DNA of 12,529 nucleotides from a virus. Shown here in pieces: positions 11,525 to 11,773 of this stretch. Within the stretch, counting starts at the first letter, position 1, and each line of letters begins with the position of its first letter. Both the position numbers and the translations under genes were made by a program. The notes under the pieces were generated by a model. That model saw only the letters and a list, made by a program, of their open reading frames with translations. It ran no database searches and was not told where the DNA came from. The stretch lies in the UHGV virus genome UHGV-1994978; one strand, 5' to 3'.

Positions 11525-11773
11525 TTACTCACATTTCCAAATTGTATTTTGTACACCACTACCTTTAGGTAAATGGGGGTTCATGTTAGCACTATGAACA
11601 TATGTTGCATTTTCCTTTCCATACTGCTGACATGCTTCATTAGCTGTTTTTTGTAAACTATCCAAACCATACCAACCGTCAGACTGAATGCTAACAGTTT
11701 TACCATCATTATATTGTACTGCTGCACATCCCGTTAAAGCTAAAGGGATAAGAATCATAATTAGGCTTTTCAT
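11525..11773 (-). CDS. small secreted lipoprotein (82 aa)
   Basis: Signal peptide [16 protein letters not shown] with lipobox LTGC; AGGAA upstream; two further Cys in the mature part could form a disulfide. Confidence 0.7.

Follow-up and report, generated by a model that had tools for sequence, protein, structure and literature searches.

Exclusion by means of lipoproteins is a widespread and structurally diverse strategy of phages. Llp of phage T5 and Cor of T1, phi80, HK022 and N15 are exclusion lipoproteins that block FhuA, Rtp45 of phage Rtp blocks LptDE, and the mEpimmI lipoproteins Lpp021 and Lpp010 are associated with OmpA- and LamB-linked exclusion. The subject of this report is the gene for a lipoprotein of 82 residues in the UHGV virus genome UHGV-1994978, of which a stretch of 12,529 nucleotides was analysed (the window, which stands for the whole of this stretch). 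A preliminary description, made from the sequence only, had presented the protein as a candidate superinfection-exclusion factor resembling Llp and Cor in size and layout. The gene proved to be strongly conserved and to be optional cargo of prophages and phage-plasmids, and its product is predicted to have a fold like that of YecR, a lipoprotein of the flagellar L ring. Our tentative reading, to which a probability of about 0.4 is given, is that it is a moron lipoprotein which would be expressed in the lysogen and dock onto a conserved outer-membrane complex for exclusion or defence.

To our knowledge, the silencing of outer-membrane receptors by phage lipoproteins is an established theme, for which structures are available of the Llp/Cor and Rtp45 types only. 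Llp consists of a short helix and four strands arranged in two sheets, and its disulfide (C11-C58) ties the N- to the C-terminal end. The genes of Rtp45, Lpp021 and Lpp010 belong to the tail and receptor-binding module or adjoin it, and they vary with the receptor that the phage uses. YecR is a lipoprotein on the outside of the flagellar L ring of Salmonella and E. coli (PDB 7bgl), where it binds each FlgH subunit of the 26-mer. Its gene is chromosomal and regulated by FlhDC, and a protective effect on the outer membrane has been proposed for the protein.

A constrained lipoprotein carried as optional cargo

The lipoprotein gene runs on the minus strand from an ATG at 11771-11773 to a TAA at 11525-11527 (82 codons). 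Its signal peptide has a lysine at position 2 in the n-region, followed by a hydrophobic core and the sequence L13-T14-G15-C16; in a rule-based check for bacterial lipoproteins, the positive n-region, the core and the lipobox were all found in the window protein. The LTGC lipobox and two further cysteines in the mature part had been pointed out before, and this description is upheld by the open reading frame (ORF), by the match to PHROG 7757 and by the invariance of the lipobox cysteine, Cys48 and Cys81 in 38 aligned sequences, including relatives of 27-38% identity. The mature protein has 67 residues (7.35 kDa), is hydrophilic and contains two prolines. Cys48 is located on the helix and Cys81 in the last strand, and in the predicted structure a disulfide between them is probable. 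In E. coli, a lipoprotein without Asp at position +2 is sorted to the outer membrane by the Lol system. The residue following Cys16 is Ala rather than Asp, as it is in nearly all close homologues (CAA, CAM, CAQ, CAT or CAL), and by this rule the lipoprotein is predicted to be located in the inner leaflet of the outer membrane.

PHROG 7757, a family annotated as being of unknown function, was matched at E=1.4e-44 (residues 11-82 against profile positions 2-73 of 74). The only other PHROG match was weak and also to a family of unknown function. Searches of Pfam, NCBIfam and PADLOC yielded no usable named family, and matches of the family to DUF4012 and DUF4189 were discarded as weak and below threshold. 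When 5.8 billion proteins were searched, 54 homologues with 66-94% identity were obtained, all named 'hypothetical', from Enterobacter, Phytobacter, Leclercia, Serratia, Klebsiella, Escherichia, Salmonella, Citrobacter and Pectobacterium. Nothing was found in the literature on the lipoprotein, including its E. coli accession and P1-like lipoproteins. The family is unnamed and uncharacterised, and is often left unannotated.

When 84 loci were compared, the signal peptides proved free to vary, in contrast to the mature part, which has 70-96% identity and is nearly fixed. The ratio of nonsynonymous to synonymous substitution rates (dN/dS) of the mature part was 0.03-0.18 against five homologues, with dS often saturated, which means that nearly every mature residue is constrained. 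The gene is real and under strong purifying selection, as would be expected for a protein that fits tightly to a conserved partner. Decayed copies were observed as well: the lipobox cysteine is changed to Gly in L078 and to Phe in L079, and L081 has an internal stop, showing that the gene is sometimes lost by mutation. Two successive profile searches, the first against 1.84 billion representatives, brought up several hundred distant relatives with 27-38% identity. These are lipoproteins of 80-90 residues too and, besides the three cysteines, keep an NDG motif and a C-terminal aromatic-x-Cys sequence. They are ordinary chromosomal genes in soil gammaproteobacteria of the Steroidobacteraceae type; one of them was found in antisense orientation directly before the terminase gene of an unrelated phage, again a moron-like position. 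In one soil gammaproteobacterium (L113/L114, 4367-7261), the chromosomal relative closes a DUF3300-DUF2950-DUF2780 gene cluster, which may hint at the ancestral context of the family.

The window is part of a prophage type of ~30-35 kb with genes for two kinds of fibre (a J-like central tail fibre and a tail fibre), for a lysozyme and for a holin-like protein. Its syntenic relatives have 65-77% DNA identity, and in these the prophage ends with the lipoprotein gene and a divergent DNA methyltransferase gene; in the Enterobacter loci L001-L003, the methyltransferase homologue abuts a chromosomal gene for a major facilitator superfamily transporter, which is itself located beside a lipid A acyltransferase gene. 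The lipoprotein gene was found in 77 IMG/VR proviruses, on 301 PLSDB plasmids and, by scanning with the close-family alignment, in 15 of 185,579 species-representative genomes, all from Enterobacterales. It was present in 181 of 5,426 complete E. coli genomes (~3%), where 182 of 184 places were P1-like phage-plasmids. In the latter, it is located between pmgV and hot, the site where P1 has upfM/N/O, and the annotation pipeline PGAP leaves it unannotated in most of them (E. coli RefSeq plasmids H13-H27). No homologue was detected by DNA or protein search, including tblastn, in a set of 50,697 deposited phage genomes; P1 is in this set, and T5, T1, phi80 and HK022 are assumed to be. As the same tblastn query finds the 301 plasmids, this absence is real.

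Klebsiella lambdoid prophages have the lipoprotein gene between their replication region and nin/Q. One of these (L004) has a strong terminator upstream and a terminator-like site downstream of the gene, and a promoter-like sequence, TCGAAA-17-TATAAT, 27 bp before its ATG. On Klebsiella IncFIB plasmids, the gene is located between insertion sequence (IS) elements with phage genes absent nearby, as on plasmid L150, where IS1 and IS5 flank it at 7001-7246. At least three unrelated backbones (the window prophage type, Klebsiella lambdoid prophages and P1-like elements) carry the lipoprotein, always in variable regions. In 44 loci (L036-L085 and others), the gene adjoins a homologue of the DNA polymerase III theta gene, hot of P1. 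In P1-like phage-plasmids and several prophages, it is usually positioned directly 5' of the theta gene with a gap of 2 bp, and in Klebsiella lambdoid prophages the theta gene lies ~0.7-1 kb upstream; the two genes seem to travel together.

The preliminary description had placed the lipoprotein gene divergently beside the methyltransferase gene in an accessory corner. The two genes are indeed divergent, with 45 bp between them, and the corner turned out to be a hypervariable slot between the holin-like gene and the methyltransferase gene that often holds defence-type cargo. For a survey that was blind to the lipoprotein, IMG/VR was searched with the methyltransferase alone, and the 28 prophages that had both the holin-like gene and the methyltransferase were taken as the sample. 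The interval between these two genes ranged from 288 to 1871 bp, and the lipoprotein was present in 9 of the 28, whereas no relative lacked the holin-like gene, whether it had the lipoprotein or not. In L106/L119, with tail proteins 97-100% and lysis-region proteins 92-100% identical to those of the window, the slot holds a 124-residue protein with three transmembrane segments in place of the lipoprotein. Among the relatives L119-L149, the slot was also found to hold KAP NTPases, which match PDC-S20 (a candidate defence family) and PifA at E down to 7e-79, and a Mrr nuclease of the LmuA-like type. Further occupants are DUF3800, DUF2971 and DUF2806 proteins and small proteins with multiple transmembrane segments. 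In L108, which lacks the methyltransferase, an HNH effector (PDC-M68A/SAVED-HNH-like) follows the holin-like gene. The slot at the prophage end (the equivalent of 11271-11818 in the window) is a defence hotspot. The lipoprotein gene is a moron, that is, optional cargo, as seen from its variable presence (9/28) and from the promoter-like and terminator sites of its own in Klebsiella L004; in the window, no promoter is predicted.

Predicted fold and possible role

The lipoprotein is predicted to fold into one four-stranded sheet packed on a 13-residue helix, with the disulfide connecting the helix to the last strand, and this prediction agrees with the solved structure of YecR. When the family profile was broadened, YecR became the best match in the PDB (E=0.047), the match being to the sequence TA..ACQQ.G...A, which contains Cys48; the profile of the close family gave no match in the PDB sequence search. 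Alignment of the family with the YecR alignment using hhalign gave a probability of 89.8% (E=1.8e-6) with the signal peptides included. With the mature parts only, the probability was 56% (P=1.1e-4, score 27.7) and the match comprised 34 columns around the helix with the cysteine, while the highest score in 30 column shuffles of the mature parts was 18.9. The window protein did not match the Pfam YecR family (PF13992) at E<=0.1, and 1 of 38 family members did so at E=0.0039, below threshold. Taken together, the lipoprotein probably has a YecR-like fold and is probably a remote homologue of YecR rather than a member of PF13992.

Some other matches were rejected. The match to TraV (E=0.36) consisted mainly of the signal peptide with the N-terminal part beside it, and the Foldseek matches to H-NOX proteins in the PDB had a target-normalised TM of 0.25 and were probably due to the signal-peptide helix. 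A Foldseek search of BFVD returned no named viral protein, the best match being an unnamed lipoprotein (E=1.5e-3). Functions as a lysozyme inhibitor, in bacteriocin release or in entry exclusion (TraT/TraV) were dropped because no family match was found.

Superinfection exclusion is proposed from the genomic context. The lipoprotein gene would be expressed in the lysogen from its own signals, and the product might then dock on a conserved complex of outer-membrane proteins, at its periplasmic rim, and alter what enters from outside. In this way, the lysogen or the plasmid-bearing cell could be protected against other, heterotypic phages, and possibly against bacteriocins. Protection would be aimed at these other phages and not at the carrier phage's own receptor. 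The proposed mode of docking is modelled by analogy on that of YecR on the L ring and on those of the unrelated Llp on FhuA and Rtp45 on LptDE; Lpp021 and Lpp010 are further precedents. The location in the slot is circumstantial evidence that favours an anti-phage role. The lipoprotein was found to be independent of the tail fibres of its carriers: it is 95-96% identical in prophages in which the C-terminus of J and the fibre are only 27-35% identical to those of the window, and therefore is not adapted to the receptor of the carrier phage; one prophage whose tail genes are 97-100% identical lacks it. An even more specific version, in which a phage-borne YecR paralogue sits on the outer wall of the L ring or on another ring- or barrel-shaped outer-membrane machine and defines a YecR-fold class of exclusion or surface-remodelling proteins independent of the carrier's receptor, is considered improbable.

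Several observations speak against an exclusion function. The homologues are all 'hypothetical' or unannotated and none has an assigned function, and the lipoprotein has no match in PADLOC. Since the distant relatives are ordinary chromosomal genes, the ancestral role of the family would not have been an anti-phage one. A sigma-70 promoter was not predicted 5' of the window copy, which thus lends no support to lysogenic expression. The link to YecR is mainly structural, YecR having been only third in the Foldseek search of the PDB (E=0.15) and the Pfam YecR family not having been reached. Finally, the evidence from the hotspot is circumstantial, as slots of this kind also hold host-fitness genes.

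The main rival to exclusion is a fitness function in the host envelope that is unrelated to phages. As a lysogenic-conversion factor, the lipoprotein would be an extra outer-membrane lipoprotein that aids the envelope as a barrier, under stress or, as in the case of Bor of phage lambda, in resistance to serum and complement. Such a role is doubtful but has several points in its favour, as the gene is intact on the Klebsiella IncFIB plasmids away from phage genes, the lipoprotein does not depend on the type of tail fibre, the distant relatives are chromosomal genes of a housekeeping type, and protection of the outer membrane has been suggested for YecR. It is at odds with the rest of the cargo in the slot, which is mostly of the defence and not of the virulence type, and with the lack of similarity to Bor/Iss or a named fitness factor. 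Alternatively, the lipoprotein could be a phage-borne paralogue of YecR that acts on FlgH in the L ring, altering flagellar function or blocking flagellum-dependent phages. Although YecR, a lipoprotein itself, binds every FlgH of the 26-mer, this is unlikely: many members of the family come from Klebsiella pneumoniae and Raoultella, which are classically non-flagellated, and its frequency in non-flagellated Klebsiella disfavours an L-ring role. Moreover, the lipoprotein has two of the four mature cysteines of YecR, ~21% identity to it and no match to the Pfam YecR family, and flagellar genes are absent near all family members examined.

An exclusion lipoprotein of the Llp/Cor type that blocks the carrier's own receptor, for example FhuA, would agree with the size class, the outer-membrane lipoprotein signals and the single predicted disulfide. 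The resemblance noted in the preliminary description holds as far as size class and lipoprotein signals are concerned, and does not extend to sequence or fold. The gene is not located beside the receptor-binding genes, being 2.7 kb from the last tail gene and on the opposite strand, nor does it co-vary with them, as it is conserved across divergent fibres and absent beside 97-100% identical tail genes. P1 uses lipopolysaccharide (LPS) as its receptor. The lack of co-variation with tail genes, together with carriage by LPS-adsorbing P1-like elements, makes a block of the carrier's own receptor very unlikely. Least probable is a role of the lipoprotein in lysis, as the o-spanin. Its small size, its predicted place in the outer membrane and the distances to a holin-like gene (~250 bp) and the lysozyme gene (~1.9 kb) would fit, but its gene lies on the strand opposite to the holin-like gene, is neither embedded in nor adjoining an i-spanin gene, and is kilobases away from lysis genes in lambdoid and P1-like elements. 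Moreover, 19 of 28 relatives have retained the holin-like gene and lack the lipoprotein gene. The relatives that were checked (L105-L110) also keep the lysozyme gene and an 88-residue transmembrane protein gene. The product is predicted to be a globular, disulfide-stapled domain and has two prolines, whereas o-spanins of the proline-rich type are unstructured. In line with this, none of the homologues proved to be a spanin, and they lack conserved neighbours from a lysis cassette; spanin homologues with such neighbours had been named in advance as a finding that would argue against an exclusion factor.

The lipoprotein is common in clinically relevant hosts, occurring in P1-like phage-plasmids, in many Klebsiella pneumoniae prophages and on 301 plasmids. 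It is nearly frozen in sequence and has a predicted fold otherwise seen in YecR, an L-ring protein of unknown role. If it does exclude phages, it would represent a structurally new exclusion class working across phage types, could influence the host range of phages used for therapy in Klebsiella and E. coli, and would help to find out to what the YecR fold binds. Otherwise, it would be one more conserved moron of unknown function.

Other features of the window

The features of the lipoprotein gene and its surroundings are listed in the table. The arms of the palindrome in the divergent gap are conserved and its centre is variable in at least six relatives (L001, L008, L012, L013, L014 and L091); read from its sequence, it is a candidate operator or (shared) hairpin in the 5' untranslated region. 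The hairpin downstream of the holin-like gene is a terminator for the plus strand, the minus strand having no T-run. The 71-residue ORF starts 13 bp 3' of the lipoprotein gene on the same strand and had no family match in scans of PHROG, Pfam, NCBIfam and PADLOC. It is an occasional operon partner; the idea that it is an obligate partner of the lipoprotein was rejected, because the two co-occur in 13 loci only.

Table. Lipoprotein gene, its signals and the flanking features in the window
Feature	Position	Strand	Basis
Prolipoprotein coding sequence, 82 residues, stop included	11525..11773	-	ORF list; PHROG 7757; 54 close homologues; dN/dS
Signal peptide, residues 1-15	11729..11773	-	Read from sequence; free divergence among homologues
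Lipobox L-T-G-C, residues 13-16	11726..11737	-	Fits [LVI][ASTVI][GAS]C; Cys16 is the predicted lipidated N-terminus
Mature globular domain, residues 17-82, predicted beta-beta-alpha-beta-beta	11528..11725	-	
Shine-Dalgarno sequence AGGAA, 6 nt 5' of the lipoprotein ATG	11780..11784	-	Read from sequence; kept in relatives
Imperfect palindrome AATACCCGTACA-N6-TGTACAAGGGTATT	11786..11817	.	Read from sequence; nearly fills the 45-bp divergent gap
DNA methyltransferase, divergent, last gene before prophage end	11819..12529	+	PHROG 3820, E=9e-104
Holin-like membrane protein, 97 residues, left border of slot	10977..11270	+	GTA_holin_3TM E=1.6e-4 and phrog_3427 E=6.4e-5, both weak
GC-rich hairpin between the convergent holin-like and lipoprotein operons	11273..11290	+	Terminator scan
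Small cytoplasmic ORF, 71 residues (GTG) or 67 residues (internal ATG)	11296..11511	-	ORF list

Elsewhere in the window, an 88-residue protein (8863-9129) has an N-terminal transmembrane segment with an ISGC lipobox-like motif and a coiled coil. Its gene is convergent with the lysozyme gene (9168-9617, minus strand) and is kept in all relatives; the product may be a lysis accessory protein and looks too short for a typical i-spanin. A gene for a GIY-YIG SegE-like protein (9658-10107; PF19835, E=3.3e-15) is wedged between the lysozyme gene and late genes, and an HNH homing-endonuclease-like gene is located at 1831-2331 (phrog_953, E=5.5e-37). An IS3-family element (2807-4036; orfA 2887-3150, orfB 3174-4007, transposase phrog_157) lies between early-type genes and tail genes, and a 99.7% identical copy is present at another position in L012 (4407-5636). 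An assembly gap of 22 N (4702-4723) is located inside the gene of the J-like central tail fibre and an overlapping 83-residue ORF, the translations of which therefore contain X.

Comparison with described lipoproteins

Llp and Cor are like the lipoprotein in having ~60-67 mature residues and one disulfide (predicted in the lipoprotein), in being encoded by phages and in carrying signals for the inner leaflet of the outer membrane. The mode of action proposed for the lipoprotein, attachment to an outer-membrane protein at its periplasmic face, is also that of Llp and Cor. The statement in the preliminary description that there is no sequence identity to Llp and Cor was confirmed by searches of the PHROGs, by tblastn of the phage genomes and by PDB sequence search, none of which gave sequence or profile similarity. 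The structure comparison that had been suggested did not bring the lipoprotein closer to Llp: Llp was never among the matches in fold searches with the lipoprotein model, and the two sheets and disulfide-tied termini of Llp are not seen in the predicted structure. The lipoprotein thus differs from Llp/Cor in sequence, in topology and disulfide, and in that its gene is not linked to a receptor-binding gene.

Rtp45, Lpp021 and Lpp010 are also small phage lipoproteins, and these exclude phages via outer-membrane proteins; the lipoprotein had no sequence match to them in the phage collection and no fold match. Bor/Iss of phage lambda and the lipoprotein have in common that they are encoded by optional, self-contained moron genes at variable sites of temperate phages and that their products are outer-membrane lipoproteins, while no family match between them was found in Pfam, PHROGs or NCBIfam.

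YecR, like the lipoprotein, is a small enterobacterial outer-membrane lipoprotein with a single globular domain. Both have the helix motif TA..ACQQ.G...A with its conserved cysteine and a C-terminal strand with aromatic-x-Cys, whereas the overall identity is ~21% and the mature domain has two cysteines in the lipoprotein and four in YecR. The lipoprotein gene is cargo of phages and plasmids and YecR is encoded by an FlhDC-regulated chromosomal gene; unlike YecR with its flagellar setting, the lipoprotein family is common in non-flagellated Klebsiella. In conclusion, the general idea of a lipoprotein encoded by a phage moron is already familiar, and as a candidate exclusion lipoprotein the protein is new in being a structural variant with a predicted YecR-like fold.
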